Below are positions 1,420 through 16,801 of a DNA stretch of 16,801 bases, one piece after another; the first letter of the stretch is position 1; every line of letters begins with the position of its first letter. The position numbers and the translations under genes were made by a program. The notes below the pieces were generated by a model. It saw only the letters and a list, made by a program, of their open reading frames with translations. It searched no databases and was not told where the DNA came from. This DNA is from a virus (Duplodnaviria; Heunggongvirae; Uroviricota; Caudoviricetes). The stretch lies in the IMG/VR virus record IMGVR_UViG_2531839178_000016; one strand, 5' to 3'.

Positions 1420-1899
1420 CTACAGTTTCTGGTTTCTTTCCTTCAGTTTTTCTTTCAGTGTCTGCCCTGTTTCTGCAATGAATGGAATGCGGATTTCCAT
1501 CTGGTAACTGTCTGCGCCAGTCTTTCTGTTTGTGGTTAATACTTTCTGGAGGACGAGTCCGATTTTCTTTCCGTGAAACTCAGGTGCAACATATTTACTG
1601 ACGGAAACCATATGTTGCGTTAACTGCCCAATTCCTGTGCATCCCATCATGGCGTGAATAATGCTCGCCCCAAATTTATTTTCAGTGCCGTCATTCTTCT
1701 GAACACAAACACTGAGATATTGGATTTTCCGTCCGTCGTCGGATTCTCCAGAAAACTCAATGAATCGGGCACCTTTTTCTGATTGCTTGAGTTCTGCTTC
1801 GGTGATGTTAATGATATGCGCACCCGTTTCGGTAATAAAACCACCTTGTCCGGCGGTCAGTGCTGATTCTTCGTTATAAGTAAAAATCACTTCATCCAT
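1420..1899 (-). CDS. hypothetical phage protein (159 aa), last gene of the exo operon before the IS911 junction
   Basis: ORF start overlaps the exo stop (TAATG) on the same strand. No recognisable family from sequence alone. Confidence 0.5.
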   Translation of the reverse strand: MDEVIFTYNEESALTAGQGGFITETGAHIINITEAELKQSEKGARFIEFSGESDDGRKIQYLSVCVQKNDGTENKFGASIIHAMMGCTGIGQLTQHMVSVSKYVAPEFHGKKIGLVLQKVLTTNRKTGADSYQMEIRIPFIAETGQTLKEKLKERNQKL

Positions 1900-2588
1900 T
1901 AGTTATTAACCCCCCATTGTTCTCCAAATACAAAACCAATTTCCGCCAGTGCTTCGTCCATTTTGTCGATGAACTCCGGCACCATCTCATCAAAACTCGT
2001 CATGTACTTTTCATCCCGCTCGACCACGACATAATGCAGGCCTTCACGCTTCATGCGTGGGTCGTAGTTGGCGAAGTACCAGGCGTCCTTGTCTGTAACC
2101 CACATGCTGAATTGCACCTGGGCCATGTAAGCAGGCTTGATAGCGTCAAAGCCGCCAAGCCGGAACTTCATGAAGTCGCGGGAAGTGAAGGGGCATTTAA
2201 GCTCAAGGCCGTTACCGTCGCTGCATAAACCGTCGGGAGAGCAGGCGGTGCGCATGCTTTCGTCACGAAAAATTATTGGCGTTTCCGAGACGGTAACATC
2301 CGCGATAAATTCGAAGATGGCACGGGCATCATCTTCGTATTGCTTTCCCCATGCGAGCGACTTAGCGTTAACTTCCGGTGCCACGCCGGTACAAACTTCA
2401 GCCAGCAGGGTGTGGAAGTATGAGATTTTTGTATCAGGCCATTTGCTGCCGGAACGTGGCTTTGCTATCACATTGTGAACTTCTGAAGCAGTGATAACAC
2501 CGAGTCTCAGCTTGTGCCATCCATCATCGCCCTGGTCGAGGCTGGTAATATCCACGCCAGTTCGCTGGAGAATAATTTCTGGTGTCAT
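1899..2588 (-). CDS. exo: lambda-type exonuclease (Red-alpha / YqaJ family)
   Basis: 229-aa protein co-linear with recalled lambda Exo (MTP.IILQRTG..., [86 protein letters not shown]). Start overlaps the recT stop (ATGA). Confidence 0.9.
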
Positions 2589-3190
2589 GACACGGCCTCG
2601 CTGCTATTTTCCGTGGTGGCGTGAATTTTCGCTTCCGCCGTGGCCTTGTTTCTGGCAGCTTTCTTTTTGACAAAATCAAGCGTTTTGACAGCTTCTTCCT
2701 GACTGAGATATTCATGTGATGCAATCGTGCGACGGAATGTTTTGGAACATAAGGGAAGCAGGTCATCCCATGTCTTGTTAATTTCGGTGATTGCCTGAGT
2801 GATCTCATTGATAATCTCATCTGATGCGGGAGTGACGTCACGCTCAGGGATGTGATCAGCATTCAGGATGATACCTTCACCGGCCTGAGTGTTCAGGTAG
2901 TCGATAGCTGTATCCAGGCGATCGCGACGGGGCCAGTATTTGCTGGCGCGCTTAACAATGGCTTTTCTGGCCATTTCATCGGGGAAACTATCCCACGGGC
3001 TACTTCCTCCGTTATTTCCGGCTTTGCTGCACGCCCTGATGACCTCGATTTCCCTGTTGCTCATCTCTTCGGTCAGATAGTCGCCTTCGGATGTTTTTAC
3101 GACACAATAACCGCCAATGCGTGCGCCCCTGTCTACGAATGGGTTGTATTTGTGCGTGGGGGCGCAGTCAATACCGTTGGACTCGTAAAT
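2585..3190 (-). pseudogene. recT: recT/bet-type single-strand annealing protein, C-terminal two-thirds (5-prime end removed by IS600 insertion at 3190/3191)
   Basis: The reading frame is open from the IS600 boundary: IYESNGIDCAPTHKYNPFVDRGARIGGYCVVKTSEGDYLTEEMSNREIEVIRACSKAGNNGGSSPWDSFPDEMARKAIVKRASKYWP..., which parallels E. coli RecT (...VTHVYAVARLKDGGTQFEVMTRKQIELVRSLSKAGNNGPW...MAKKTAIRRLFKYLP). The N-terminal part is at 11944..12291. Confidence 0.8.
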
Positions 3191-3254
3191 TGAGGTAGCC
3201 TGAGTTTAACGGACACTCCTTCCTGAAATAGAATGGCATCAGAAGGAGCTAATA

Positions 3255-3517
3255 ATGAGCAGAAAAACCCAACGTTACTCTAAAGAGTTCAAAGCCGAAG
3301 CTGTCAGAACGGTTCTTGAAAATCAACTTTCGATCAGTGAAGGCGCTTCCCGATTATCCCTTCCTGAAGGCACTTTAGGACAATGGGTTACCGCCGCCAG
3401 AAAAGGACTCGGTACTCCTGGTTCCCGCACGGTGGCTGAACTGGAATCTGAAATTCTGCAACTGCGTAAGGCGTTAAATGAAGCTCGCCTTGAGCGAGAT
3501 ATATTAAAAAAAGCAAC
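3255..3517 (+). pseudogene. IS600 orfA, interrupted by IS30 after ...ERDILKKAT
   Basis: MSRKTQRYSKEFKAEAVRTVLENQLSISEGASRLSLPEGTLGQWV... is the IS600 OrfA sequence. The frame reads into the IS30 terminal repeat at 3518. The remaining orfA codons (AYFAQESLKNTR*) resume after IS30 at 4741. Confidence 0.85.
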
Positions 3518-4738
3518 TGTAGATTCAATTGGTCAACGCAACAGTTATGTGAAAACATGGGGTCGCGGAGGTTTTTTGAATGAGACGAACATTTACAGCA
3601 GAGGAAAAAGCCTCTGTTTTTGAACTATGGAAGAACGGAACAGGCTTCAGTGAAATAGCGAATATCCTGGGTTCAAAACCCGGAACGATCTTCACTATGT
3701 TAAGGGATACTGGCGGCATAAAACCCCATGAGCGTAAGCGGGCTGTAGCTCACCTGACACTGTCTGAGCGCGAGGAGATACGAGCTGGTTTGTCAGCCAA
3801 AATGAGCATTCGTGCGATAGCTACTGCGCTGAATCGCAGTCCTTCGACGATCTCACGTGAAGTTCAGCGTAATCGGGGCAGACGCTATTACAAAGCTGTT
3901 GATGCTAATAACCGAGCCAACAGAATGGCGAAAAGGCCAAAACCGTGCTTACTGGATCAAAATTTACCATTGCGAAAGCTTGTTCTGGAAAAGCTGGAGA
4001 TGAAATGGTCTCCAGAGCAAATATCAGGATGGTTAAGGCGAACAAAACCACGTCAAAAAACGCTGCGAATATCACCTGAGACAATTTATAAAACGCTGTA
4101 CTTTCGTAGCCGTGAAGCGCTACACCACCTGAATATACAGCATCTGCGACGGTCGCATAGCCTTCGCCATGGCAGGCGTCATACCCGCAAAGGCGAAAGA
4201 GGTACGATTAACATAGTGAACGGAACACCAATTCACGAACGTTCCCGAAATATCGATAACAGACGCTCTCTGGGGCATTGGGAGGGCGATTTAGTCTCAG
4301 GTACAAAAAACTCTCATATAGCCACACTTGTAGACCGAAAATCACGTTATACGATCATCCTTAGACTCAGGGGCAAAGATTCTGTCTCAGTAAATCAGGC
4401 TCTTACCGACAAATTCCTGAGTTTACCGTCAGAACTCAGAAAATCACTGACATGGGACAGAGGAATGGAACTGGCCAGACATCTAGAATTTACTGTCAGC
4501 ACCGGCGTTAAAGTTTACTTCTGCGATCCTCAGAGTCCTTGGCAGCGGGGAACAAATGAGAACACAAATGGGCTAATTCGGCAGTACTTTCCTAAAAAGA
4601 CATGTCTTGCCCAATATACTCAACATGAACTAGATCTGGTTGCTGCTCAGCTAAACAACAGACCGAGAAAGACACTGAAGTTCAAAACACCGAAAGAGAT
4701 AATTGAAAGGGGTGTTGCATTGACAGATTGAATCTACA
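3518..4738 (+). mobile_element. IS30 (complete, 1221 bp) nested in IS600; flanked by 2-bp duplication AC
   Basis: Terminal repeats TGTAGATTCAATTGGTCAACGC (3518) and GCATTGACAGATTGAATCTACA (ends 4738). AC is present on both flanks (3516..3517 and 4739..4740). Confidence 0.95.
3580..4731 (+). CDS. insI: IS30 transposase (383 aa)
   Basis: Full-length ORF with N-terminal HTH and C-terminal DDE-type catalytic domain, bounded by IS30 inverted repeats. Identical translation to the copy at 13238..14389. Confidence 0.95.
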   Translation: MRRTFTAEEKASVFELWKNGTGFSEIANILGSKPGTIFTMLRDTGGIKPHERKRAVAHLTLSEREEIRAGLSAKMSIRAIATALNRSPSTISREVQRNRGRRYYKAVDANNRANRMAKRPKPCLLDQNLPLRKLVLEKLEMKWSPEQISGWLRRTKPRQKTLRISPETIYKTLYFRSREALHHLNIQHLRRSHSLRHGRRHTRKGERGTINIVNGTPIHERSRNIDNRRSLGHWEGDLVSGTKNSHIATLVDRKSRYTIILRLRGKDSVSVNQALTDKFLSLPSELRKSLTWDRGMELARHLEFTVSTGVKVYFCDPQSPWQRGTNENTNGLIRQYFPKKTCLAQYTQHELDLVAAQLNNRPRKTLKFKTPKEIIERGVALTD

Positions 4739-4815
4739 ACAGCGTATTTTGCACAGGAGTCGCTGAAAAATACGCGTTAATCGAACAATGGCGACAACAA
4801 TTTCCCATTGAAGCG

Positions 4816-5634
4816 ATGTGTCAGGTATTTGGTGTATCCAGGAGCGGTTATTACAACTGGGTACAGCATGAACCCTCAGACAGAAAACAAAGTGATGAGC
4901 GGCTAAAACTGGAGATTAAGGTGGCACATATCCGCACTCGCGAAACATATGGAACCCGGCGGCTCCAGACGGAGCTGGCAGAGAATGGCATCATCGTTGG
5001 TCGTGACCGACTGGCACGTCTTCGTAAGGAGCTAAGGCTACGCTGTAAGCAGAAACGCAAGTTCAGAGCGACTACGAACCCGAACCACAATCTGCCAGTT
5101 GCGCCAAATCTGCTGAACCAGACGTTCGCTCCTACAGCACCAAATCAGGTCTGGGTGGCGGACCTGACGTATGTTGCCACACAGGAGGGATGGTTGTACC
5201 TCGCTGGCATCAAAGATGTTTATACGTGCGAAATTGTCGGCTACGCCATGGGAGAGCGCATGACAAAAGAGCTGACAGGTAAAGCCCTGTTTATGGCGCT
5301 CAGGAGCCAGCGCCCACCTGCCGGGCTAATCCACCACTCTGATCGAGGTTCACAGTACTGCGCATACGATTACCGGGTCATACAGGAGCAGTTTGGTCTG
5401 AAAACATCAATGTCGCGTAAAGGTAACTGTTACGACAACGCTCCGATGGAAAGCTTCTGGGGAACGCTGAAAAATGAGAGCCTGAGCCACTATCGTTTTA
5501 ATAACCGGGATGAAGCCATCTCAGTAATACGGGAATACATTGAGATTTTCTACAATCGTCAGCGTCGTCACTCTCGTCTGGGGAATATCTCCCCGGCAGC
5601 CTTCAGGGAAAAATATCATCAGATGGCTGCTTAA
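4816..5634 (+). CDS. IS600 transposase OrfB frame (DDE integrase); the OrfAB fusion is prevented by the IS30 insertion
   Basis: 272-aa ORF with IS3-family motifs (WVADLTYV, HSDRGSQYCA, GNCYDNAPMESFW). Matches recalled IS600 OrfB. Confidence 0.85.
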   Translation: MCQVFGVSRSGYYNWVQHEPSDRKQSDERLKLEIKVAHIRTRETYGTRRLQTELAENGIIVGRDRLARLRKELRLRCKQKRKFRATTNPNHNLPVAPNLLNQTFAPTAPNQVWVADLTYVATQEGWLYLAGIKDVYTCEIVGYAMGERMTKELTGKALFMALRSQRPPAGLIHHSDRGSQYCAYDYRVIQEQFGLKTSMSRKGNCYDNAPMESFWGTLKNESLSHYRFNNRDEAISVIREYIEIFYNRQRRHSRLGNISPAAFREKYHQMAA

Positions 5635-7136
5635 AAAAAGAACAAATGGTAGTGTCCGCTATTGCCAGTACACCTCATTGACTTGATGAAATTGTGCACT
5701 TCAACCGAGGTTTGCAGCGGCGCGTTACTGAAGCCTTTAGGCCACACCCCGAACTTCTCTTTGTAGGTATGAGCGCACCATCCGTCACTCAGTGGCTTAC
5801 CTGTCGCGTTGCGGTAATTCTGATAGCCCTTGATCTCACTCCACCACCGCTGTTTTTCCTCACGGCTGTATTCGCGTTTCCCTTTGTTTACGCGAGAGAG
5901 TTTTCGATCGCGGTCTGTTGCCACATCATCGCCACCAAGAGGACGAAACCCACATTTGGGACACATGTGTACACCAGCAGGCTTCATGAAGTGGCATTTG
6001 GGGCATTCTCTGGGAAGTTTTTCAGCTTTAACCTCGCCACCGCCAGCAGACGCTTTCATTCCGTCATTTTTGCCCGGCAGTTCGTCATACTCGATATCCT
6101 CGGGGAAACCCAGCCGATGAACCGTGCCAGAATGGTCGAAAATCAACGCACGTTGTTTACCTGGGGCTGTACGTAACGCTCTACCTATGCACTGCAACCA
6201 ACGGATTTCTGATTTTGTCGGACGGGCATAGATCAGGCAGCGAACATCGCTGTCAAATCCCGCAACCAGTACGCCGACGTTGACAATTATTTTGGTCACG
6301 CCCTCTTCAAAACGGCGAATGATGTCCTGTCGTTCATCATGGAGGGTATCTGCCGTCATCACCTCTGCGCCAATACCGGCCTGTAAAAACTCACGGGTAA
6401 CAAAATTCGCATGCGCAACATTCACACAGAAGCAGATCGTCGGCAAATCCTCACCATTCTCAAGCCAGTTGCGAACGATATCGCCAACCAGATCCGAACT
6501 CCCCATGATGGATGCGAGCTGCTCCTCGTTGTAATCCCGTCCAAATACGGTGTTACTGGTTTTTACGCCAGCCAGATCAGGCATTGAGGGGGCAAAAAAC
6601 TCATAATCGCTCAGATCACCACGCTGAATAAGTTCACGAATCGTTGTAGGCTTGATCAGGCATTCGTAGTACTTCCCCATCCAGGCTGCGAACGGGGTAC
6701 CGGAAAGTCCAAGAACCCTGATGTCTCTGTCCCGGATAACCTCAAGTAACGCACGACGCTTCATGTGTGCTTCATCGATGATCAGCAGATCGATGTTGTT
6801 AGGAAACTCACGACGGATCAGCGTGTCGGCACTGGCAATCTGAATCAGTCGTGACGGGTCATAGTTAGGGTGATCACGCCATACAAAACTGATTTCTTCC
6901 CACGGCAAACCGTATTCGGTGAAACGTTCCGCTGTCTGGTTCAGCAGGATGGTGTACGGACAGACAAACATCACTCGCATACCACGTTCAACCATTCCGG
7001 CGGTGACGAATGCTGCAAGACCAGTTTTGCCAGAGCCAGTGGGTGCATACATCAGGTACGTGCGATGCTGTTTCCACTGGTGCCGCAGCTGGTTTAAACC
7101 GCGCTCCTGAGCAAAGTTTGGGATTATTTTCAGCAT
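5631..7136 (-). CDS. SF2 DEAH-box helicase (ResIII-like core plus C-terminal zinc ribbon); native 3-prime end replaced by IS600 sequence from 5677 downward
   Basis: Motif I APTGSGKT, motif II LLIIDEAH, motif III SGTPF, motif VI QCIGRALR, then CPKCHF...CPKCGF zinc ribbon. The last about 15 codons (MRCTGNSGHYHLFFF) lie in the IS600 right end. Start overlaps the stop of the upstream 128-aa gene (ATGCTGA). Confidence 0.85.
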   Translation of the reverse strand: MLKIIPNFAQERGLNQLRHQWKQHRTYLMYAPTGSGKTGLAAFVTAGMVERGMRVMFVCPYTILLNQTAERFTEYGLPWEEISFVWRDHPNYDPSRLIQIASADTLIRREFPNNIDLLIIDEAHMKRRALLEVIRDRDIRVLGLSGTPFAAWMGKYYECLIKPTTIRELIQRGDLSDYEFFAPSMPDLAGVKTSNTVFGRDYNEEQLASIMGSSDLVGDIVRNWLENGEDLPTICFCVNVAHANFVTREFLQAGIGAEVMTADTLHDERQDIIRRFEEGVTKIIVNVGVLVAGFDSDVRCLIYARPTKSEIRWLQCIGRALRTAPGKQRALIFDHSGTVHRLGFPEDIEYDELPGKNDGMKASAGGGEVKAEKLPRECPKCHFMKPAGVHMCPKCGFRPLGGDDVATDRDRKLSRVNKGKREYSREEKQRWWSEIKGYQNYRNATGKPLSDGWCAHTYKEKFGVWPKGFSNAPLQTSVEVHNFIKSMRCTGNSGHYHLFFF

Positions 7137-8280: not shown

Positions 8281-8385
8281 AGAGATCCTCCCATTTCAAT
8301 TTTCCGATATTAGCTTACCTGATTTAAATGTCAATAGGCTAGCTATTTGATAAATATTTGTGTTGCTAATAAAATCGGAGGCACT
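8281..8385. promoter_or_regulatory. cI/cro divergent control region (PR- and PRM-like promoters; operator sites not resolved)
   Basis: Minus strand: -35 TTGACA (8329..8334), 16-bp spacer, -10 TAATAT (8307..8312), driving cro. Plus strand: -35 TTGATA (8347..8352), 17-bp spacer, -10 TAAAAT (8370..8375), giving a nearly leaderless cI transcript. Predicted start sites are about 82 bp apart. Confidence 0.6.
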
Positions 8386-9105
8386 ATGACGAAGAAAATT
8401 ACAATTACTGACAAAGACATCCAGAACGCTGAACGACTGCGCAAAATCTGGGATGAAAAACGGAAACAGCTATCCCTAAGCCAGGAAAAAGCCGCAGATA
8501 TCCTCGGCTTCAAAACGCAGGGGGCTGTTAGTCAGTTATTGAACGCAAAAATTGCGTTAAATACTGAAAATACCCTTAAGTTTGCGGCTTTATTACAGGT
8601 TCCTGCGGAAGAAATTAATCCAGATCTGAGTGATTTGTTACGCAGTATTCGTACCCACACACCGGGAAACAGGCGTAACCTGTTCGAGAAATATTACGAA
8701 TATCCGTTACTCTCCTGCGTACAGGCTGGAGCTTTCTCAATGGATGATTTTTCGTACACCGCAAAGGATGCGATTAAGTGGATCTCCACCACCACAAAAG
8801 CCAGTGACAGGTCGTTCTGGCTGGAGGTCAAGGGGCATTCAATGACCGCGCCGCAGGGTGGTAAACCCAGTTTCCCCGAAGGGATGCTGATACTCGTTGA
8901 CCCTGAGCGGGAGATTGAGGATGGCGATTTTTGCGTGGCCCGAATGAATGGCGATGAATTCACCTTCAAACGATTCATTCGTGAGAGCGGTAAAGCGTAC
9001 CTGGAGCCACTCAACCCACGATTCGACATGATTGAGTGTAACGAAAACTGCCAGTTTGTCGGAAAGGTCATAAAGTCGCAGTGGAATGATGAGACTTTTG
9101 ATTGA
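8386..9105 (+). CDS. cI: CI-type prophage repressor (HTH plus LexA-like S24 autopeptidase domain), 239 aa
   Basis: Co-linear with recalled lambda CI: Ala-Gly cleavage site (CVQAGAFS), catalytic Ser (GHSMTAP) and Lys (FTFKRF), [33 protein letters not shown] at 8386 preceded by GGAG. Confidence 0.9.
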
Positions 9106-9511: not shown

Positions 9512-9856
9512 TTAAGCCCCTGTGTGATGGTTGACTTCTTTTTCCAGCGCCTTATTAACAAAGGCGTTCAGTGATAAATCTTCTTCCATCGCCATTTCAG
9601 CGACCCGACGATGCAGTTCTGGATCAAGTCTGACGTTAAACACACCTTTAAACGGGGTATCAGGCTCCTTTCCATCCTCCACACAAGACTGTAAATACAG
9701 CTCAACCGATGTCTTAAACTCCTGTTCCAGTTCAGCTAATGTAGAAGCCTCATAAGTTACCAGGTCTCGAATAAACGCCAGTTTTCCGTACAGGATATTA
9801 TTTTCAAAATCTGGTTCTACTGTACCTAAATATCCTTTATATTTTAGATGATTCAT
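9512..9856 (-). CDS. hicB: HicB-family antitoxin (114 aa)
   Basis: N-terminal HicB fold motifs (YKGYLGTVE...FYGK...IRDLVTYEASTLAELEQEF) and C-terminal ribbon-helix-helix-like tail (FNVRLDPELHRRVAEMAMEEDLSLNAFVNKALE). Start overlaps the hicA stop (ATGA). Confidence 0.8.
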   Translation of the reverse strand: MNHLKYKGYLGTVEPDFENNILYGKLAFIRDLVTYEASTLAELEQEFKTSVELYLQSCVEDGKEPDTPFKGVFNVRLDPELHRRVAEMAMEEDLSLNAFVNKALEKEVNHHTGA

Positions 9857-10107
9857 AATACCCCAGCCTCTTTCAGATTCTGTTTAATCGCTTTCAGCGT
9901 TCCACCTTTAATATAACTTTCTGGATGTGGGCGATGCATTAATATGGTGTGGTTGATTTCAGCATTGAAAAACCGCACTCTTGAGCCCTGCATTTCCTTT
10001 TTGACATATCCCAGAGAGGAAAACAAAACGACCAACTCATCCCATTCAAACGTTTTTTTACTGTTTAAAAACTTTTCCAGTAGCTTATCTGCTTTCCCCA
10101 TACCCAC
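9853..10107 (-). CDS. hicA: HicA-family toxin (mRNA interferase), about 82-84 aa; start at GTG 10107 or ATG 10101
   Basis: C-terminal HicA signature (GSRVRFFNAEINHTILMHRPHPESYIKGGTLKAIKQNLKEAGVL). Toxin-first order with 4-bp overlap onto hicB. Confidence 0.8.
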   Translation of the reverse strand: MGMGKADKLLEKFLNSKKTFEWDELVVLFSSLGYVKKEMQGSRVRFFNAEINHTILMHRPHPESYIKGGTLKAIKQNLKEAGVL

Positions 10108-10136: not shown

Positions 10137-10165
10137 ATTATAGTTACAGGCGATGTTTTTGTCAA
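10137..10165 (-). promoter_or_regulatory. consensus sigma70 promoter for hicAB (-35 TTGACA, 17-bp spacer, -10 TATAAT)
   Basis: Minus strand reads TTGACAAAAACATCGCCTGTAACTATAAT about 30 bp upstream of the hicA start. Confidence 0.65.
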
Positions 10166-10283: not shown

Positions 10284-10730
10284 GCGCATCCTCCATAACT
10301 CACCACCTGCATTATCCTCGCTTATATTTTTTACATAAATAAATTAATCTAAAAATCAATCACATAGATTAAAATTAAATTATTAGTCTTACTATTAACT
10401 GCGATCAGTTGCGCTTATTATATTTTACCCAAGCCAGAAACATCGCGCCCTGACACAGGGCTACATAAATCAGTCGTACGGCGCGACTTAACCCGCCGCA
10501 AAATGCTCTTTAACAATCTGGAGCTTTACAGCGTCAATGACCTGTTTAGACCCCTACACGTAAACGTGCTGTATCATCGGGTGCGATCCGGTCGATGAGA
10601 GAGTATCCCCGCGCGAGAGCGAGAACGGCGTGAGAACGGGCAACACTGGCAGGAAGTTGGCGCTGACCAATACAGGGAATGTTTTGGGGTGCAGGCGGCA
10701 CCGCCAAAGCATTTCCGAGAAAGGACGATA

Positions 10731-10759
10731 TTGACTGCGTGTGATGTCGGGGCTATATT
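10731..10759 (+). promoter_or_regulatory. strong sigma70-type promoter upstream of rha (-35 TTGACT, 17-bp spacer, -10 TATATT)
   Basis: TTGACTGCGTGTGATGTCGGGGCTATATT read directly from the plus strand. Confidence 0.6.
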
Positions 10760-10819
10760 TGGCGAACACCTCATAAAACGGGTGCCGGGATTAGCACCCC
10801 GAAAGTTACTCGAGCGCAT

Positions 10820-10842
10820 AACCGCGCTGAAGCGGTTTTTTT
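10820..10842 (+). terminator. intrinsic terminator inside the rha leader, about 75 nt downstream of the predicted start site
   Basis: AACCGC-GCTGAA-GCGGTT followed by TTTTTTT. Flanked by an outer inverted repeat CGCATA...TATGCG. Confidence 0.6.
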
Positions 10843-11008
10843 ATGCGTAATGCACAGCCACATTCAAATTATGGTGAGGCGTGCGGGGCAGCCGCAAGGC
10901 TGGCCGGGTTCTCGAGTGACCGGTAGTGCTAACCCTGTGCGTCTCACCACCCATGAGATTAGCACCTCTGGTGGTGAGTTAATTAACTTATCACTTGAGG
11001 ATGTCATT

Positions 11009-11647
11009 ATGGCTACTACCCTTTCTCACCCTGACGTAACCATCGAAAATGGTCGCGCCGTCACTACTTCTATTTCGATTGCTGAGTTTTTTGGCAAGCA
11101 GCATCACCATGTTGTTCAGAAAATAGAATCCCTCGAATGCTCTGAGCAATTCTTAACCCGCAACTTTTCGCGGGTTAAATTCGAACACCGAGGCAATACC
11201 TATAACGCCTACCAAATCACCAAAAACGGCTTCGTTTTTCTGGTGATGGGCTTCACCGGCAAAAAAGCAGCTGCATTCAAGGAAGCCTACATTGCTGAAT
11301 TCGATCGCATGGAAAAACAACTATGGGAACAGAAACAACTGGCCCTGTCTTCTCCTGCGATGAATATCAATTTCCCTTTATCGTGGTTTTCAGAGCATCA
11401 CCCCTATGCCACGATGAACTATGTTGATAGAAATACATTGCAGCTTGATACCTCCGTCTTATTCGACATGCCAAGCCCTGCAATGCGCATATTTAATGAA
11501 TTACGTCGTAACGGCTATAACGTCGATGCGGCTGTCGCCGAATTTAACGCCTTCAAGCATCTGACGGAAGAAATGCGCCGTAAATTGCTGGATATTTCCT
11601 GCACATCGGAAAAGTCTTCCCGCTTTGGTTTCAACGTTAATCTTTAA
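11009..11647 (+). CDS. rha: Rha-family phage regulatory protein (212 aa)
   Basis: N-terminal Rha-type region (VTTSISIAEFFGKQHHHVVQKIESLECSEQFLTRNF...YQITKNGFVFLVMGFTGKKAAAFKEAYIAEFDRME). Start ATG at 11009 chosen for GAGG RBS at 8-nt spacing; the longer ORF from 10850 overlaps the structured leader. Confidence 0.75.
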   Translation: MATTLSHPDVTIENGRAVTTSISIAEFFGKQHHHVVQKIESLECSEQFLTRNFSRVKFEHRGNTYNAYQITKNGFVFLVMGFTGKKAAAFKEAYIAEFDRMEKQLWEQKQLALSSPAMNINFPLSWFSEHHPYATMNYVDRNTLQLDTSVLFDMPSPAMRIFNELRRNGYNVDAAVAEFNAFKHLTEEMRRKLLDISCTSEKSSRFGFNVNL

Positions 11648-11783: not shown

Positions 11784-11926
11784 GCAGCCTTTTTTTACCC
11801 AAAGAAGCCCAACTGGCACTCACTGGCGAAAAAGCTGAAGAGGCGTACAACGATTATATCTCAGCGATCGCCTATGCTCGGGCGGAAGAAGAATGGGAGA
11901 GAAAATTCTCCCCCTGTCCTTTCTGA
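11780..11926 (+). CDS. candidate small ORF (48 aa) immediately upstream of recT
   Basis: MSSLFLPKEAQLALTGEKAEEAYNDYISAIAYARAEEEWERKFSPCPF. Coupled to the preceding micro-ORF. Occupies the position of gam/kil/cIII-type small genes. Confidence 0.35.
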   Translation: MSSLFLPKEAQLALTGEKAEEAYNDYISAIAYARAEEEWERKFSPCPF

Positions 11927-11943
11927 TTTTCAGGACCAAAAAA

Positions 11944-12291
11944 ATGTTCGATATCGTTGAATTTGTTAAGCAGCAGGAGCGCTTTTTCTGCAAGGCATTA
12001 ACTGAACCGACGCTGACATGGGCGAAGGAAAGTCAGTTTGCAATTCAGCAATTCCAGAAAAATGCCTTTCTGGCTGACACAGCACGGGCAAATCTGCCCA
12101 GCGCACAGAACGCTATCATCAATGTTGCCGCCATCGGCATAACCCTGAACCCGGCCAGCAAGCTGGCGTATCTGGTCCCACGAAAAAAGGCTGTATGCCT
12201 GGATATCAGTTATATGGGGCTTCTGCATCTGGCACAGGTCACAGGAGCCATTCAGTGGGGGCAATGCAAACTTGTTTACGAGAAGGACATT
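11944..12291 (+). pseudogene. recT: recT/bet-type single-strand annealing protein, N-terminal third (3-prime part removed by IS600 at 12291/12292)
   Basis: ...NAIINVAAIGITLNPASKLAYLVPRKKAVCLDISYMGLLHLAQVTGAIQWGQCKLVYEKDI parallels the RecT N-terminal region (SAIVQCSQLGLEPGS...AYLLPFG...GYRGMIDLARRSGQI...VVREGDE). The frame runs into the IS600 end. An alternative start at 11893 is possible. Confidence 0.75.
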
Positions 12292-12334
12292 TGAGGTGTA
12301 CTGGCAATAGCGGACACTACCATTTGTTCTTTTT

Positions 12335-13153
12335 TTAAGCAGCCATCTGATGATATTTTTCCCTGAAGGCTGCCGGGGAGATATTCCCCAGACGAGAGTG
12401 ACGACGCTGACGATTGTAGAAAATCTCAATGTATTCCCGTATTACTGAGATGGCTTCATCCCGGTTATTAAAACGATAGTGGCTCAGGCTCTCATTTTTC
12501 AGCGTTCCCCAGAAGCTTTCCATCGGAGCGTTGTCGTAACAGTTACCTTTACGCGACATTGATGTTTTCAGACCAAACTGCTCCTGTATGACCCGGTAAT
12601 CGTATGCGCAGTACTGTGAACCTCGATCAGAGTGGTGGATTAGCCCGGCAGGTGGGCGCTGGCTCCTGAGCGCCATAAACAGGGCTTTACCTGTCAGCTC
12701 TTTTGTCATGCGCTCTCCCATGGCGTAGCCGACAATTTCGCACGTATAAACATCTTTGATGCCAGCGAGGTACAACCATCCCTCCTGTGTGGCAACATAC
12801 GTCAGGTCCGCCACCCAGACCTGATTTGGTGCTGTAGGAGCGAACGTCTGGTTCAGCAGATTTGGCGCAACTGGCAGATTGTGGTTCGGGTTCGTAGTCG
12901 CTCTGAACTTGCGTTTCTGCTTACAGCGTAGCCTTAGCTCCTTACGAAGACGTGCCAGTCGGTCACGACCAACGATGATGCCATTCTCTGCCAGCTCCGT
13001 CTGGAGCCGCCGGGTTCCATATGTTTCGCGAGTGCGGATATGTGCCACCTTAATCTCCAGTTTTAGCCGCTCATCACTTTGTTTTCTGTCTGAGGGTTCA
13101 TGCTGTACCCAGTTGTAATAACCGCTCCTGGATACACCAAATACCTGACACAT
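12335..13153 (-). CDS. IS600 transposase OrfB frame
   Basis: Translation identical to 4816..5634. Confidence 0.85.
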   Translation of the reverse strand: MCQVFGVSRSGYYNWVQHEPSDRKQSDERLKLEIKVAHIRTRETYGTRRLQTELAENGIIVGRDRLARLRKELRLRCKQKRKFRATTNPNHNLPVAPNLLNQTFAPTAPNQVWVADLTYVATQEGWLYLAGIKDVYTCEIVGYAMGERMTKELTGKALFMALRSQRPPAGLIHHSDRGSQYCAYDYRVIQEQFGLKTSMSRKGNCYDNAPMESFWGTLKNESLSHYRFNNRDEAISVIREYIEIFYNRQRRHSRLGNISPAAFREKYHQMAA

Positions 13154-13230
13154 CGCTTCAATGGGAAATTGTTGTCGCCATTGTTCGATTAACGCGTATT
13201 TTTCAGCGACTCCTGTGCAAAATACGCTGT

Positions 13231-14451
13231 TGTAGATTCAATCTGTCAATGCAACACCCCTTTCAATTATCTCTTTCGGTGTTTTGAACTTCAGTGTCTT
13301 TCTCGGTCTGTTGTTTAGCTGAGCAGCAACCAGATCTAGTTCATGTTGAGTATATTGGGCAAGACATGTCTTTTTAGGAAAGTACTGCCGAATTAGCCCA
13401 TTTGTGTTCTCATTTGTTCCCCGCTGCCAAGGACTCTGAGGATCGCAGAAGTAAACTTTAACGCCGGTGCTGACAGTAAATTCTAGATGTCTGGCCAGTT
13501 CCATTCCTCTGTCCCATGTCAGTGATTTTCTGAGTTCTGACGGTAAACTCAGGAATTTGTCGGTAAGAGCCTGATTTACTGAGACAGAATCTTTGCCCCT
13601 GAGTCTAAGGATGATCGTATAACGTGATTTTCGGTCTACAAGTGTGGCTATATGAGAGTTTTTTGTACCTGAGACTAAATCGCCCTCCCAATGCCCCAGA
13701 GAGCGTCTGTTATCGATATTTCGGGAACGTTCGTGAATTGGTGTTCCGTTCACTATGTTAATCGTACCTCTTTCGCCTTTGCGGGTATGACGCCTGCCAT
13801 GGCGAAGGCTATGCGACCGTCGCAGATGCTGTATATTCAGGTGGTGTAGCGCTTCACGGCTACGAAAGTACAGCGTTTTATAAATTGTCTCAGGTGATAT
13901 TCGCAGCGTTTTTTGACGTGGTTTTGTTCGCCTTAACCATCCTGATATTTGCTCTGGAGACCATTTCATCTCCAGCTTTTCCAGAACAAGCTTTCGCAAT
14001 GGTAAATTTTGATCCAGTAAGCACGGTTTCGGCCTTTTCGCCATTCTGTTGGCTCGGTTATTAGCATCAACAGCTTTGTAATAGCGTCTGCCCCGATTAC
14101 GCTGAACTTCACGTGAGATCGTCGAAGGACTGCGATTCAGCGCAGTAGCTATCGCACGAATGCTCATTTTGGCTGACAAACCAGCTCGTATCTCCTCGCG
14201 CTCAGACAGTGTCAGGTGAGCTACAGCCCGCTTACGCTCATGGGGTTTTATGCCGCCAGTATCCCTTAACATAGTGAAGATCGTTCCGGGTTTTGAACCC
14301 AGGATATTCGCTATTTCACTGAAGCCTGTTCCGTTCTTCCATAGTTCAAAAACAGAGGCTTTTTCCTCTGCTGTAAATGTTCGTCTCATTCAAAAAACCT
14401 CCGCGACCCCATGTTTTCACATAACTGTTGCGTTGACCAATTGAATCTACA
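13231..14451 (-). mobile_element. IS30 (complete, 1221 bp) nested in IS600 copy 2
   Basis: Same terminal repeats as 3518..4738. Same right-hand junction sequence (ACAGCGTATT) as copy 1. Confidence 0.95.
13238..14389 (-). CDS. insI: IS30 transposase (383 aa)
   Basis: Translation identical to 3580..4731. Confidence 0.95.
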   Translation of the reverse strand: MRRTFTAEEKASVFELWKNGTGFSEIANILGSKPGTIFTMLRDTGGIKPHERKRAVAHLTLSEREEIRAGLSAKMSIRAIATALNRSPSTISREVQRNRGRRYYKAVDANNRANRMAKRPKPCLLDQNLPLRKLVLEKLEMKWSPEQISGWLRRTKPRQKTLRISPETIYKTLYFRSREALHHLNIQHLRRSHSLRHGRRHTRKGERGTINIVNGTPIHERSRNIDNRRSLGHWEGDLVSGTKNSHIATLVDRKSRYTIILRLRGKDSVSVNQALTDKFLSLPSELRKSLTWDRGMELARHLEFTVSTGVKVYFCDPQSPWQRGTNENTNGLIRQYFPKKTCLAQYTQHELDLVAAQLNNRPRKTLKFKTPKEIIERGVALTD

Positions 14452-14659
14452 GTTGCAGAATTTCAGATTCCAGTTCAGCCACCGTGCGGGAACCAGGAGT
14501 ACCGAGTCCTTTTCTGGCGGCGGTAACCCATTGTCCTAAAGTGCCTTCAGGAAGGGATAATCGGGAAGCGCCTTCACTGATCGAAAGTTGATTTTCAAGA
14601 ACCGTTCTGACAGCTTCGGCTTTGAACTCTTTAGAGTAACGTTGGGTTTTTCTGCTCAT
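14452..14659 (-). pseudogene. IS600 orfA fragment, shortened by a 55-bp deletion next to the IS30 IRL
   Basis: OrfA reads MSRKTQ...ELESEILQL and then meets IS30. Copy 1 has a further 18 codons (RKALNEARLERDILKKAT) before IS30. Confidence 0.8.
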
Positions 14660-14859
14660 TATTAGCTCCTTCTGATGCCATTCTATTTCAGGAAGGAGTG
14701 TCCGTTAAACTCAGGCTACCTCAAAGGACCGAACAAACGAAACAGCAATGAGACCGTTGCGAAAAGCGACAATAGACAAATTCCCTGAATATATCGACCC
14801 GCGCCTGCGTAATTACCGCTCACGCTATGGCGCTATCAGTAATGACTGAGGAATTTACC

Positions 14860-15804: not shown

Positions 15805-16687
<883 letters not shown>

Positions 16688-16691
<4 letters not shown>

Positions 16692-16801
16692 TTTTTCCAG
16701 AGGCGGTCGAACTCCGCCTTCGCAAAATAAGCGGAAGCCTGGCGAAGGATATCGTTACTGCGGCGCAGTTCACGATTTTCACGCTCCAGCTCTTTCAGAC
16801 G
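16688..16801 (-). CDS. IS629 orfA C-terminal part (partial at window edge)
   Basis: Minus-strand translation ...[37 protein letters not shown] with the A-run frameshift motif (GGAAAAAATGATG) at the orfA/orfB overlap. Confidence 0.8.

Follow-up and report, generated by a model that had tools for sequence, protein, structure and literature searches.

The immunity operon immI of phages P1 and P7 is laid out, in the accounts of Citron and Schuster (1990) given by PMC2864571 and PMC12197685 and in the annotation of record NC_005856, as promoters P51a/b followed by a1-b1, c4, a2-b2, icd, and ant1/2. The a and b sequences set specificity and are the basis of P1/P7 heteroimmunity (PMC12197685). The P1 record annotates C4 as a trans-acting repressor and describes a2/b2 as the sites of "repression of icd ant translation."

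The second described system is the isrK-orf45(STnc1160)-anrP-isrJ locus of the Salmonella prophage Gifsy-1 (Hershko-Shalev et al. 2016, PMC4825925). A member of the isrK family is expected to bind Hfq and to occur both as a short terminated RNA and as a read-through mRNA isoform. In Gifsy-1, partial read-through of the terminator was shown, the read-through mRNA was translationally silent, and IsrK provided in trans raised anrP translation more than 100-fold, the translational effect being 139-fold and that on a transcriptional fusion 8-fold; compensatory mutations established the a1:a' pairs G28:C162 and G31:C159 (PMC4825925). That study related the locus to seqA/CI of satellite phage P4 and left the P1 c4 work uncited. 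As summarized there, P4 immunity comprises seqA, CI RNA, and seqC, and pairing of the CI RNA with seqA and seqC leads to premature transcription termination. By the same summary, P4 resembles the locus described here in that an RNA processed from an untranslated leader pairs with complements both upstream and downstream on one transcript, and it differs in that transcription ends prematurely instead of an SD sequence being occluded.

The isrK locus of Gifsy-1 and the c4 immunity operon of P1/P7 amount to a single module. We describe a further example upstream of rha in the window, the whole 16.8-kb stretch of phage DNA analyzed here; it is therefore not a new kind of system but one already described in P1/P7 and Gifsy-1. 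The region is probably an RNA control module of the P1 immI type for a gene of the antirepressor class, built like the isrK locus of Gifsy-1.

Organization of the leader upstream of rha

The leader consists of a promoter, IsrK, the C4 antisense RNA, and a2/b2, followed by rha (Table 1). An earlier reading, made from the sequence alone, had proposed that this was not a simple promoter-gene arrangement, which is correct. The near-consensus promoter that it had described is present. By itself such a match is not significant, as the window contains 13 promoter-like sites where 19.8 would be expected, but 18 divergent homologues with differing spacers all keep TTGA in the -35 element and TATAnT as the -10 element. 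The isrK match begins 7 nt after the -10 element, and no further promoter-like site was found on the + strand between 10760 and 11009. The promoter is the counterpart of PisrK in Gifsy-1 and of P1c4 in P1. LexA control of it was considered and rejected, there being no CTGT-N8-ACAG site anywhere near the promoter. Upstream of it there is no inverted repeat fit to be an operator.

Table 1. Features of the isrK-C4-rha region, with positions in the window
Feature	Position	Strand	Description
Sigma-70 promoter	10731..10759	+	-35 TTGACT 10731-10736, 17-nt spacer, -10 TATATT 10754-10759; 10/12 match
IsrK small RNA	10766..10842	+	Rfam RF01394, 61.6 bits vs gathering score 50; full length, 1-77 of 77
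a1 target/decoy site	10791..10797	+	TTAGCAC; in hairpin 2 loop of IsrK; pairs with C4 a'
b1 target/decoy site	10806..10814	+	TTACTCGAG; single-stranded linker of IsrK; complementary to b' loop
Intrinsic terminator of IsrK	10820..10842	+	AACCGCGCTGAAGCGGTT at 10820-10837; stem AACCGC/GCGGTT; seven T at 10836-10842
C4 antisense RNA gene	10867..10954	+	Rfam RF01695, 78.6 bits vs gathering score 45; model 1-87 of 87
Open frame, 46 codons	10871..11008	+	AUG in C4 5' strand; counterpart of Gifsy-1 orf45; fused in frame to rha, no stop
b' element	10908..10919	+	GUUCUCGAGUGA; 12-nt loop of C4 hairpin 2; part pairing with b1 is CTCGAGTGA, from 10911
a' element	10926..10932	+	GUGCUAA (DNA GTGCTAA); single-stranded, between C4 hairpin 2 and basal stem
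a2 target site	10959..10965	+	TTAGCAC; rha leader; 7/7 Watson-Crick with a'
Copy of C4 basal-stem 5' strand	10970..10978	+	GGTGGTGAG; pairs with C4 3' strand 10943-10951, or forms local hairpin
b2 target site	10991..11002	+	TCACTTGAGGAT; covers rha SD GAGGA 10997-11001
rha	11009..11647	+	ATG at 11009; Pfam Phage_pRha PF09669, E = 3.8e-26; regulated gene

The terminated RNA of about 75 nt that had been proposed to run from near 10766 to 10842 is IsrK, and the canonical terminator with its 7-T tail lies at its 3' end as reported. IsrK folds into hairpin 1 (10767-71/10780-84), hairpin 2 (10786-89/10798-801), and the terminator. In an alignment (A1) of 18 distinct homologous leaders, which served as the comparative set throughout, these three elements were 100%, 100%, and 95.4% paired, with 3, 1, and 2 pairs, respectively, changed on both sides; the T run of the terminator was invariant. 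A different hairpin, GGGTGC (10780-10785)-N8-GCACCC (10794-10799), had been put forward and does exist in the sequence, but as a conserved fold of IsrK it was rejected: it was 77.8% paired, no better than shuffles (119/500), unlike the Rfam two-hairpin fold, which was fully paired with covariation. The middle part of IsrK is complementary to the downstream C4 (orf45/STnc1160) RNA, corresponding to helix b-I of Hershko-Shalev et al. (2016). A second Rfam family, c4-a1b1 (RF03163), scored below its threshold at 10753-10805 (17.5 versus 46.7 bits, E = 0.06), whereas Gifsy-1 (48.1) and P1 (51.0) do exceed it; a feature of that family, a1 and b1 sequences complementary to the adjoining C4 RNA, is nevertheless present.

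The C4 match lies 24 nt from that of isrK. In C4, a basal stem of 17 bp encloses two hairpins; the minimum free energy (MFE) structure (-46.9 kcal/mol, z = -4.15) is equal to the Rfam consensus. Its stems were 100, 98.9, and 100% paired among the 18 homologues, and 12 of the 27 pairs were changed on both sides. In P1, RNase P processes a precursor to yield a C4 of about 77 nt. Taking the ends annotated in the P1 record as a guide, we predict the mature C4 of the window at about 10873-10951. RNA folding, which had been suggested as a check, gave for the whole 265-nt leader a z of -5.72 relative to shuffles, and its MFE structure pairs IsrK a1/b1 with C4 b'/a'. From the terminator to rha the leader measures 166 nt; the earlier reading had given 160 nt.

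Complementary elements and their covariation

Three TTAGCAC cores in alternating orientation had been noted at 10794, 10927, and 10956; they exist, at 10791, 10926, and 10959. The motif occurs three times on both strands of the window versus 1.9 expected, and all three copies fall within 175 nt. They are the a1, a', and a2 elements of the c4 (immI) scheme of phage P1. The a' element forms 7/7 Watson-Crick pairs with both a1 and a2, and b1 forms 9/9 pairs, including one G-U, with 10911-10919 of the b' loop. Six of the 7 a1:a' pairs covary, with 97.6% of cells paired, as do 8 of the 9 b1:b' pairs, with 91.9% of cells paired. In total, 14 of these 16 pairs covary; 97.9% of cells were paired overall versus 40 to 45% when the partners were slid, and 0 of 500 shuffles reached this value.

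Column-wise counts on A1 for a':a2 and b':b2 were depressed (52 to 91%) because the register of a2/b2 shifts between lineages. These two complementarities were examined instead by a search in each sequence and by an energy matrix of cognate versus non-cognate partners. A perfect cognate a2 was found in 17 of 18 homologues (7/7, or 6/6 in L060c, in which a' is one nucleotide shorter). In the window, b':b2 comprises 12/12 pairs (9 Watson-Crick and 3 G-U) spanning the SD, and in the 16 homologues with a loop of 12 nt, a cognate b2 of 11 to 12 pairs lies over the SD or directly next to it. As expected of a C4 RNA, a'/b' are complementary to a2/b2 in a co-transcribed target mRNA at its ribosome-binding site, and with a1:a' and b1:b' four complementarities link the parts of one transcript.

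The a' element has 9 sequence variants, and each variant goes with an a1 and an a2 that match it. With 9 b-types these make up 13 specificity classes in as many a/b combinations, some of them hybrid (e.g., L039 and L001), and one contig (L060) carries three cassettes in tandem that differ in a/b specificity. Across the 13 classes, IsrK duplexes had a mean energy of -26.3 kcal/mol for cognate and -13.8 kcal/mol for non-cognate partners, and a2+b2 duplexes had means of -22.4 and -10.2 kcal/mol; the difference was about 12 kcal/mol in both comparisons.

The copy of the C4 basal-stem 5' strand between a2 and b2 offers competing structures. A local hairpin with 10970-10978 would bring a2 and b2 together and is present in the MFE structure, but it is weakly conserved (66% paired in A1); the alternative helix 10943-51/10970-78 reaches 90.7% pairing and has good support for covariation at two pairs. 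The competing GGTGAG/CTCACC pairings and the repeated TTAGCAC that had caught the attention of the first reading do look functional and covary in homologues. The elements it listed exist, CTGGTGGTGAG exactly where placed (10968-10978), GGTGAGGCG at 10873-10881 rather than 10884-10892, and CGTCTCACCACCC at 10940-10952 rather than 10938-10950. The C4 antisense RNA and the second set of elements, b1/b'/b2, including the cover of the SD by b2, did not figure in it. The observation is thus confirmed as real, with small coordinate errors, and its interpretation is partly supported.

Likeness to P1, Gifsy-1, and related loci

The layout is common to P1 and Gifsy-1. P1 shares the order of promoter, a1/b1 hairpin leader, T-rich hairpin, C4, a2, small hairpin, and b2 at the SD of the first gene, and in both systems a' is single-stranded and b' lies in the loop of hairpin 2. 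RF01695 scores 68.8 bits on the P1 C4, and isrK recognizes the leader of P1 at E = 4.5e-6. A BLAST search of C4 against phage records did not reach P1. P1 differs in having the small icd between b2 and ant; in the window, no separate small icd-like gene was found between C4/b2 and the regulator gene, so that the target operon lacks the icd-then-ant order and b2 masks the SD of rha itself. The regulated proteins also differ, Ant in P1 and a Rha-type protein here. Finally, P1 is a plasmid prophage with C1 operators, whereas the module here sits in a lambdoid prophage whose repressor, encoded at 8347-9105, is a LexA-like CI protein; no C1-type operator was identified at the promoter of the module.

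In Gifsy-1, isrK (79.3 bits) and C4 (orf45/STnc1160, 69 bits) are spaced as they are here, a1/a'/a2 read TTGGCGT/ACGCCAA/TTGGCGT, b2 lies directly beside the antirepressor gene's SD, and an open frame starts from the AUGGUG of C4. The "structure A" of Gifsy-1, in which IsrK pairs in cis with the C4 loops, is also the MFE structure of the leader in the window. The Gifsy-1 locus differs in adjoining antQ in the late region and in its reading frame: the TGA of orf45 overlaps the ATG of anrP in another frame (translational coupling), whereas here the frame runs into rha.

Besides the Pfam match, Rha matches a transcriptional-regulator PHROG and several anti-repressor PHROGs, which AnrP of Gifsy-1 also matches; BLASTP detected no similarity of Rha to P1 Ant1 or to AnrP. 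These matches suggest that the product of rha is a regulator of the Rha family and of antirepressor type, which may act as an antirepressor. The module lies between a hicAB cassette and recombination genes. The rha-recT-exo operon that had been assumed is not intact: IS copies interrupt recT, whose 3' part is found, like exo, on the opposite strand at a distance of about 9 kb.

In related loci, sRNA-Xcc1 (RF02221) takes the place of C4 before other Rha/antirepressor genes. These loci are likewise built of a promoter, a short leader that ends in a terminator, and an RNA of about 87 nt ahead of the SD, and a loop 7- to 8-mer is exactly complementary to leader and SD sites and covaries between loci. 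sRNA-Xcc1 belongs to another Rfam family outside clan CL00128, has another fold, and is absent from the window.

Proposed control of rha

We propose that transcription from the promoter would start near 10766 and that most transcripts would end at the terminator, yielding the 77-nt IsrK, while some read-through would produce an RNA carrying C4, the a2/b2 leader, and rha. RNase P would probably cut C4 from this precursor at about 10872/10873, as in P1. The a' and b' elements of C4 would then pair with a2 and b2, hiding the SD so that Rha is not made, and the untranslated message would probably also be exposed to Rho. IsrK, whose a1/b1 are copies of the C4 targets, would compete for C4, both in cis, while part of the precursor (the silent "structure A"), and in trans, in its short terminated form, and the IsrK:C4 balance would therefore decide whether Rha is made. 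The direction of the IsrK effect proposed here is that of the Gifsy-1 experiments. Given the C4 gene and the position of b2 over the SD, the best-supported control point would be the initiation of rha translation, blocked by the antisense RNA and relieved by the decoy, and not attenuation at 10842.

The sequence-only reading had favored such an attenuation or antitermination switch, in which a decision at the 10842 terminator, made by leader hairpins or by an RNA or protein factor, would govern entry into rha. A canonical, conserved terminator does stand 77 nt from the start, there are competing, covarying helices, the P4 CI RNA causes premature termination according to the summary in PMC4825925, and a transcriptional fusion in Gifsy-1 rose 8-fold with IsrK in trans. 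However, the upstream hairpin of that reading is not conserved, and no anti-terminator helix competing with the terminator stem was found. The competing helix 10943-51/10970-78 lies 3' of the terminator and so cannot act as an anti-terminator. There was also no match to a riboswitch or other cis-regulatory family in 10600-11100 at E <= 10. The conserved complementarity aims at the SD and not at the terminator, and the translational effect in Gifsy-1 (139-fold) far exceeds the transcriptional one. We consider control by attenuation very unlikely.

A second alternative follows the proposal made for Gifsy-1, namely, a purely cis conformational switch in which IsrK remodels the silent mRNA so that ribosomes load at the AUG at 10871 and reach rha, C4 being no trans repressor. 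With the frame fused to rha, this would here mean direct read-through into rha and not coupling. In Gifsy-1, start and stop mutations in orf45 lower IsrK-dependent activation of anrP, IsrK promotes 30S binding at the orf45 ribosome-binding site, and constitutive STnc1160 did not antagonize IsrK. The AUGGUG start, at which orf45 also begins, is invariant in 18/18 homologues, and the rha frame has 18 stops versus 62 and 54 in the other two frames. In 13/18 homologues the frame that starts at 10871 stays open and in register with rha, but this is not universal: L001, L013, L060c, L062, L054, and Gifsy-1 have it interrupted or in another phase. Such a switch also leaves unexplained why a2/b2 are exact cognate complements that track a'/b' through 13 classes, and why b2 sits on the rha SD, and by annotation of its record the C4 of P1 is a proven trans-acting repressor. 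As the whole explanation a cis switch thus appears rather unlikely, but it is largely compatible with antisense control by C4, the two not being exclusive.

The leader might also be simply coding, giving a long Ash-Rha protein that begins upstream and leaving the RNA structures incidental. The rha frame is indeed open from at least 10760, Pfam Phage_ASH matches the conceptual translation (E = 1.3e-15), PGAP annotates a 298-aa Rha spanning the region in an E. coli genome, each of the three L060 cassettes is one open frame (283 to 286 aa), and the profile of PHROG 995 is longer at its N terminus by about 104 positions. Against this, compensatory double changes keep the RNA pairs and alter the amino acids, a conserved promoter and a seven-T terminator would lie inside the supposed gene, several homologues carry stops or frameshifts, the first in-frame start codon in the window comes only at 10850, and stable IsrK and STnc1160 RNAs have been seen experimentally in Salmonella. 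On the compensatory changes, the stops, and the internal promoter and terminator, coding of the whole leader was rejected as the main explanation, and we regard it as extremely improbable. No protein record was found for a 265-aa long form of Rha. The corrected gene model starts rha at 11009; the longer annotated frames (298 aa in the E. coli RefSeq genome) swallow two non-coding RNAs.

Some observations speak against the model of C4 repression relieved by IsrK. In Gifsy-1, constitutive STnc1160 did not counteract IsrK and growth arrest was even stronger, which sits badly with a simple picture in which C4 represses and IsrK titrates. In the P1 record, a1/b1 have no more than a "putative" role, and the subthreshold c4-a1b1 score, the lack of an icd-like gene, and the dissimilarity of Rha to Ant1/AnrP also count against it.

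A broader interpretation can be offered tentatively. IsrK-type RNAs may generally be the "putative" a1b1 of c4 immunity, that is, a co-transcribed anti-antisense decoy, and the freely recombining a/b elements could form a combinatorial RNA "address code" that insulates the antirepressor circuits of co-resident lambdoid prophages. The open frame that begins within the C4 5' strand may be translated, in which case cleavage by RNase P and ribosome loading could be competing fates of one precursor. In P1, the RNase P cleavage falls within the AUG of the C4 5' strand.

With these results, an unexplained structured leader has become two named RNA genes and a defined target. The window's 1.3-kb isrK-C4-rha region was matched in 686 of 5426 complete E. 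coli genomes, in 134 of them over at least 80% of its length, the best match being only about 91%. Its two short address elements vary and recombine, which would explain how each of several prophages in one cell can have a private antirepressor switch.

Two RNA genes in the leader of rha

When the window was scanned against Rfam at curated thresholds, two adjacent RNA genes, isrK and the C4 antisense RNA, were found on the plus strand. The isrK match begins 7 nt past the -10 hexamer and its end coincides with that of the terminator, so the short terminated transcript (~75 nt) proposed in the sequence-only reading is a member of a described family. That reading had also noted the segments GGTGAGGCG and CGTCTCACC, which are the two strands of the 17-bp basal stem of C4, although the C4 gene itself was not recognized.

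Every element listed in the sequence-only reading was found in the window, with some positions corrected. GGTGAGGCG starts at 10873 rather than 10884, CGTCTCACCACCC starts at 10940 rather than 10938, and the TTAGCAC cores, also misquoted, start at 10791, 10959 and, as complement, 10926. These three copies are the only ones in all 16.8 kb and lie within 175 nt, and the 265-nt leader folds with a z of -5.7 relative to shuffles; both the clustering and the folding are beyond chance. The promoter match alone is nothing unusual for the window, where 13 promoter-like sites were observed versus 19.8 expected.

Using P1 nomenclature, taken from the annotated P1 record, the three cores are a1, a' and a2. 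A second complementary set, b1, b' and b2, had been missed; b2 pairs with all 12 bases of the b' loop. When the entire leader is folded at minimum energy, a1/b1 of IsrK are paired in cis with a'/b' of C4.

Features of the window, and positions of sRNA-Xcc1 in comparison loci carrying Rha/antirepressor relatives
Feature	Position	Strand	Remarks
Promoter	-35 TTGACT 10731-10736; -10 TATATT 10754-10759	+	17-nt spacer; 10/12 match
isrK (RF01394)	10766-10842	+	61.6 bits (gathering score 50), full length
Hairpin GGGTGC/GCACCC	10780-10785 and 10794-10799	+
a1 TTAGCAC	10791-10797	+	loop of IsrK hairpin 2
b1 TTACTCGAG	10806-10814	+	within IsrK
Terminator AACCGCGCTGAAGCGGTT	10820-10837	+	seven T running to 10842
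C4 (RF01695)	10867-10954	+	78.6 bits (gathering score 45), full length
b'	10908-10919	+	12-nt loop of C4 hairpin 2
a' GTGCTAA	10926-10932	+	single-stranded stretch of C4
a2 TTAGCAC	10959-10965	+
b2 TCACTTGAGGAT	10991-11002	+	covers rha Shine-Dalgarno sequence
Shine-Dalgarno GAGGA	10997-11001	+	upstream of rha
rha ATG	11009	+
YqaJ exonuclease gene	1899-2588	-	with recT 3' part
recT 3' part	2585-3064	-	beyond other IS copy, ~9 kb away
IS copies	3190-5677 and 12292-14724		inverted orientation; recT halves abut them
CI-like repressor	8347-9105		HTH + S24 peptidase
hicAB (hicA/hicB)	9512-10107	-	toxin-antitoxin; just upstream of isrK promoter, opposite strand
hicAB promoter TTGACA-17-TATAAT	10137-10165	-	only perfect 12/12 sigma-70 consensus in window
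recT 5' part	11893-12294	+	downstream of rha
ALIL pseudoknot (RF01497)	16617-16733	-	120 bits; frameshift site of another IS3-family element, window right end
sRNA-Xcc1 (RF02221)	L059 1039-1127; L063; L064; L051; L052; L074 (two copies); L054 1691-1774; L027/L028 ~1980-2065

The host prophage

The module resides in a decayed lambdoid prophage. The leader had been thought to control entry into a rha-recT-exo operon; this operon is broken in the window, since recT is split and its 3' part lies with the exonuclease gene on the opposite strand, beyond the other IS copy. The recT 5' part runs up to an inverted IS repeat whose two 2165-nt arms (12292-14456 and 3513-5677) are 100% complementary, and each IS copy is nested, with an IS30-type 383-aa transposase between IS3-family orfA/orfB. 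The break apparently arose when the 6.6 kb separating the two copies became inverted. In an E. coli relative, the slot of hicAB is occupied by a restriction-modification pair instead.

Covariation of the a and b elements

Relatives of Rha in IMG/VR yielded a comparison set of 79 loci. Almost all close and medium relatives had isrK and C4 upstream of the gene with order and spacing kept. In an alignment of 18 distinct leaders, the a1:a' helix was 97.6% paired with 6/7 pairs changed on both sides, and the b1:b' helix was 91.9% paired with 8/9 pairs so changed. The C4 stems were 99-100% paired with 12 covarying pairs, and pairing of the terminator was maintained via two covarying pairs. Over all cells, 97.9% were paired compared with 40-45% when the partners were slid by 1-3 columns, and 0/500 shuffles reached 97.9%. 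The covariation is therefore strong.

Column counts for a2 and b2 were depressed because their register differs among lineages, and a per-sequence search was used for a clearer picture. This revealed a perfect cognate a2 in 17/18 leaders and, in the 16 leaders with a 12-nt loop, a cognate b2 able to form 11-12 pairs at the Shine-Dalgarno sequence. The leaders comprised nine a-types and nine b-types in 13 combinations. Cognate and non-cognate pairs were separated by the predicted energies of their duplexes: for C4 with IsrK, cognate pairs averaged -26.3 versus -13.8 kcal/mol for non-cognate pairs, and for C4 with a2 plus b2 the averages were -22.4 versus -10.2 kcal/mol. The evidence that C4 contacts both IsrK and the rha leader comes most strongly from this three-way covariation.

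Two comparison leaders have a mosaic make-up. In L039, b elements like those of the window are joined to a elements of the type of another locus, L036. L001 (957-1215) has a' GTAGCAA and a2 TAGCTAC, yet its a1 is still TTAGCAC, so at the a site its IsrK and C4 no longer match. In L060 (1-2721; contig IMGVR_UViG_2806310672_000003), three tandem cassettes of ~850 nt each contain a promoter, isrK, C4 and a rha-like gene, with a different a/b specificity in each; each cassette is also open throughout, as one frame of 283-286 aa.

The same alignment bears on the attenuation/antitermination switch that had been suggested for the leader. An alternative helix, between the C4 3' strand (10943-51) and 10970-78, is conserved (90.7% paired, two solid covarying pairs). 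A classical attenuator is unlikely because this helix sits downstream of the terminator, the upstream GGGTGC/GCACCC hairpin is unconserved, and the region has zero matches to cis-regulatory families in Rfam.

The leader could also be read as coding sequence. Its frame is open from at least 10760, and over the 18 leaders the rha frame contains 18 stops, whereas the two remaining frames have 62 and 54. Translated conceptually, IsrK, C4 and a2 (10760-11008) give a match to the Pfam family Phage_ASH (PF10554; E = 1.3e-15), PGAP annotates a 298-aa 'Rha' over both RNA genes in E. coli NZ_CP027445.1 (570899-571795; L082 3340-4236), and the PHROG 995 profile has ~104 extra N-terminal positions. This reading is contradicted by the compensatory RNA changes, by the promoter and terminator inside the supposed gene, and by stops in several homologues. 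The Phage_ASH/long-Rha family is either a translated non-coding locus or a frame that is really used. In L050, the 7-nt unit CACCAAT is repeated ~10 times between a2 and b2 (~1110-1200). The repeat stretches the interval between the C4 AUG (~1000) and the rha ATG (1201) to ~201 nt, compared with 138 nt in related leaders, and with nine added units (63 nt) the two codons remain in frame.

Relation to P1 and Gifsy-1 and control of Rha

This RNA control module is one that had been described before. The observation made from the sequence was confirmed, and its interpretation was partly right. The P1 RefSeq record gives the order promoters P2c4/P1c4, a1, b1, 77-nt C4 RNA, a2, b2, icd and ant1/ant2, and assigns a2/b2 to 'repression of icd ant translation'. 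The P1 sequence shares its hairpins with the window; b1 is followed by a T-rich hairpin, and b2 immediately precedes the Shine-Dalgarno sequence of icd. The P1 region scored 68.8 bits for C4, 51.0 for c4-a1b1 and 35.1 for isrK (E = 4.5e-6), and the antQ-anrP interval of the Salmonella prophage Gifsy-1 scored 79.3 for isrK, 69.0 for C4 and 48.1 for c4-a1b1. In contrast, the window IsrK reached 17.5 bits on the c4-a1b1 model, below threshold.

In Gifsy-1, the IsrK terminator is partially read through, the long mRNA is translationally silent, anrP translation rises >100-fold with IsrK in trans, and a stable processed RNA, STnc1160, derives from the read-through transcript (Hershko-Shalev et al., PMC4825925). 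The pairs G28:C162 and G31:C159 reported there fall in a1 (TTGGCGT) and a' (ACGCCAA); a2 is TTGGCGT. That paper draws its parallel with P4 seqA/CI, without citing the studies of P1 c4. The motifs catalogued by Weinberg et al. 2010 include c4 antisense RNA as well as c4-a1b1, and a 2025 review still has IsrK and c4 as separate entries.

Unlike P1, the window has no icd, and b2 masks the Shine-Dalgarno sequence of the regulator gene itself; unlike Gifsy-1, its orf45-like frame continues in phase into rha instead of ending at the gene start. The regulator carries a Phage_pRha domain and has no BLASTP similarity to P1 Ant1 or Gifsy-1 AnrP, and anti-repressor PHROG matches are common to Rha and AnrP. 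These differences are variations within a known kind.

The best-supported account is that C4 represses and IsrK competes. The promoter would fire from the putative start site, the majority of transcripts would end as IsrK, and read-through transcripts would carry C4, a2/b2 and rha. C4 would be released from this precursor, probably by RNase P, by analogy with P1, where C4 is released by that enzyme; the annotated P1 C4 5' end falls inside the AUG with which the C4 stem begins. Pairing of C4 with a2 and b2 would hide the Shine-Dalgarno sequence and block synthesis of Rha, a putative antirepressor, with Rho-dependent polarity likely to follow. IsrK, having the same two targets, would compete for C4 in cis or in trans, and the IsrK/C4 balance would set Rha output. 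What the analysis itself demonstrates is which elements pair, that they covary, and that the layout is common to the window, P1 and Gifsy-1; the remaining steps, including the direction in which IsrK acts, are inferred. The failure of constitutive STnc1160 to antagonize IsrK in Gifsy-1 (PMC4825925) does not fit a simple titration picture. The cis-switch with an upstream open frame proposed by the Gifsy-1 authors is compatible with the sequence, as every leader has the AUGGUG start and in 13/18 leaders the frame is uninterrupted and in phase with rha, but it leaves the tracking of a'/b' by a2/b2 unexplained.

In other Rha/antirepressor relatives, sRNA-Xcc1 occupies the place of C4, with a layout of the same logic: promoter, short terminated leader, ~87-nt RNA and Shine-Dalgarno sequence. 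Its loop 7-8-mer (CTTGTAAG, CTTTGAAG, CTTGCTG, CTTTGCA or CTACTTG) has exact complements in the leader and at the Shine-Dalgarno sequence and covaries between loci. sRNA-Xcc1 appears to be an analogue of C4 that does not belong to Rfam clan CL00128.

What is still of interest is chiefly the combinatorial specificity code and the open frame that runs through the RNAs.
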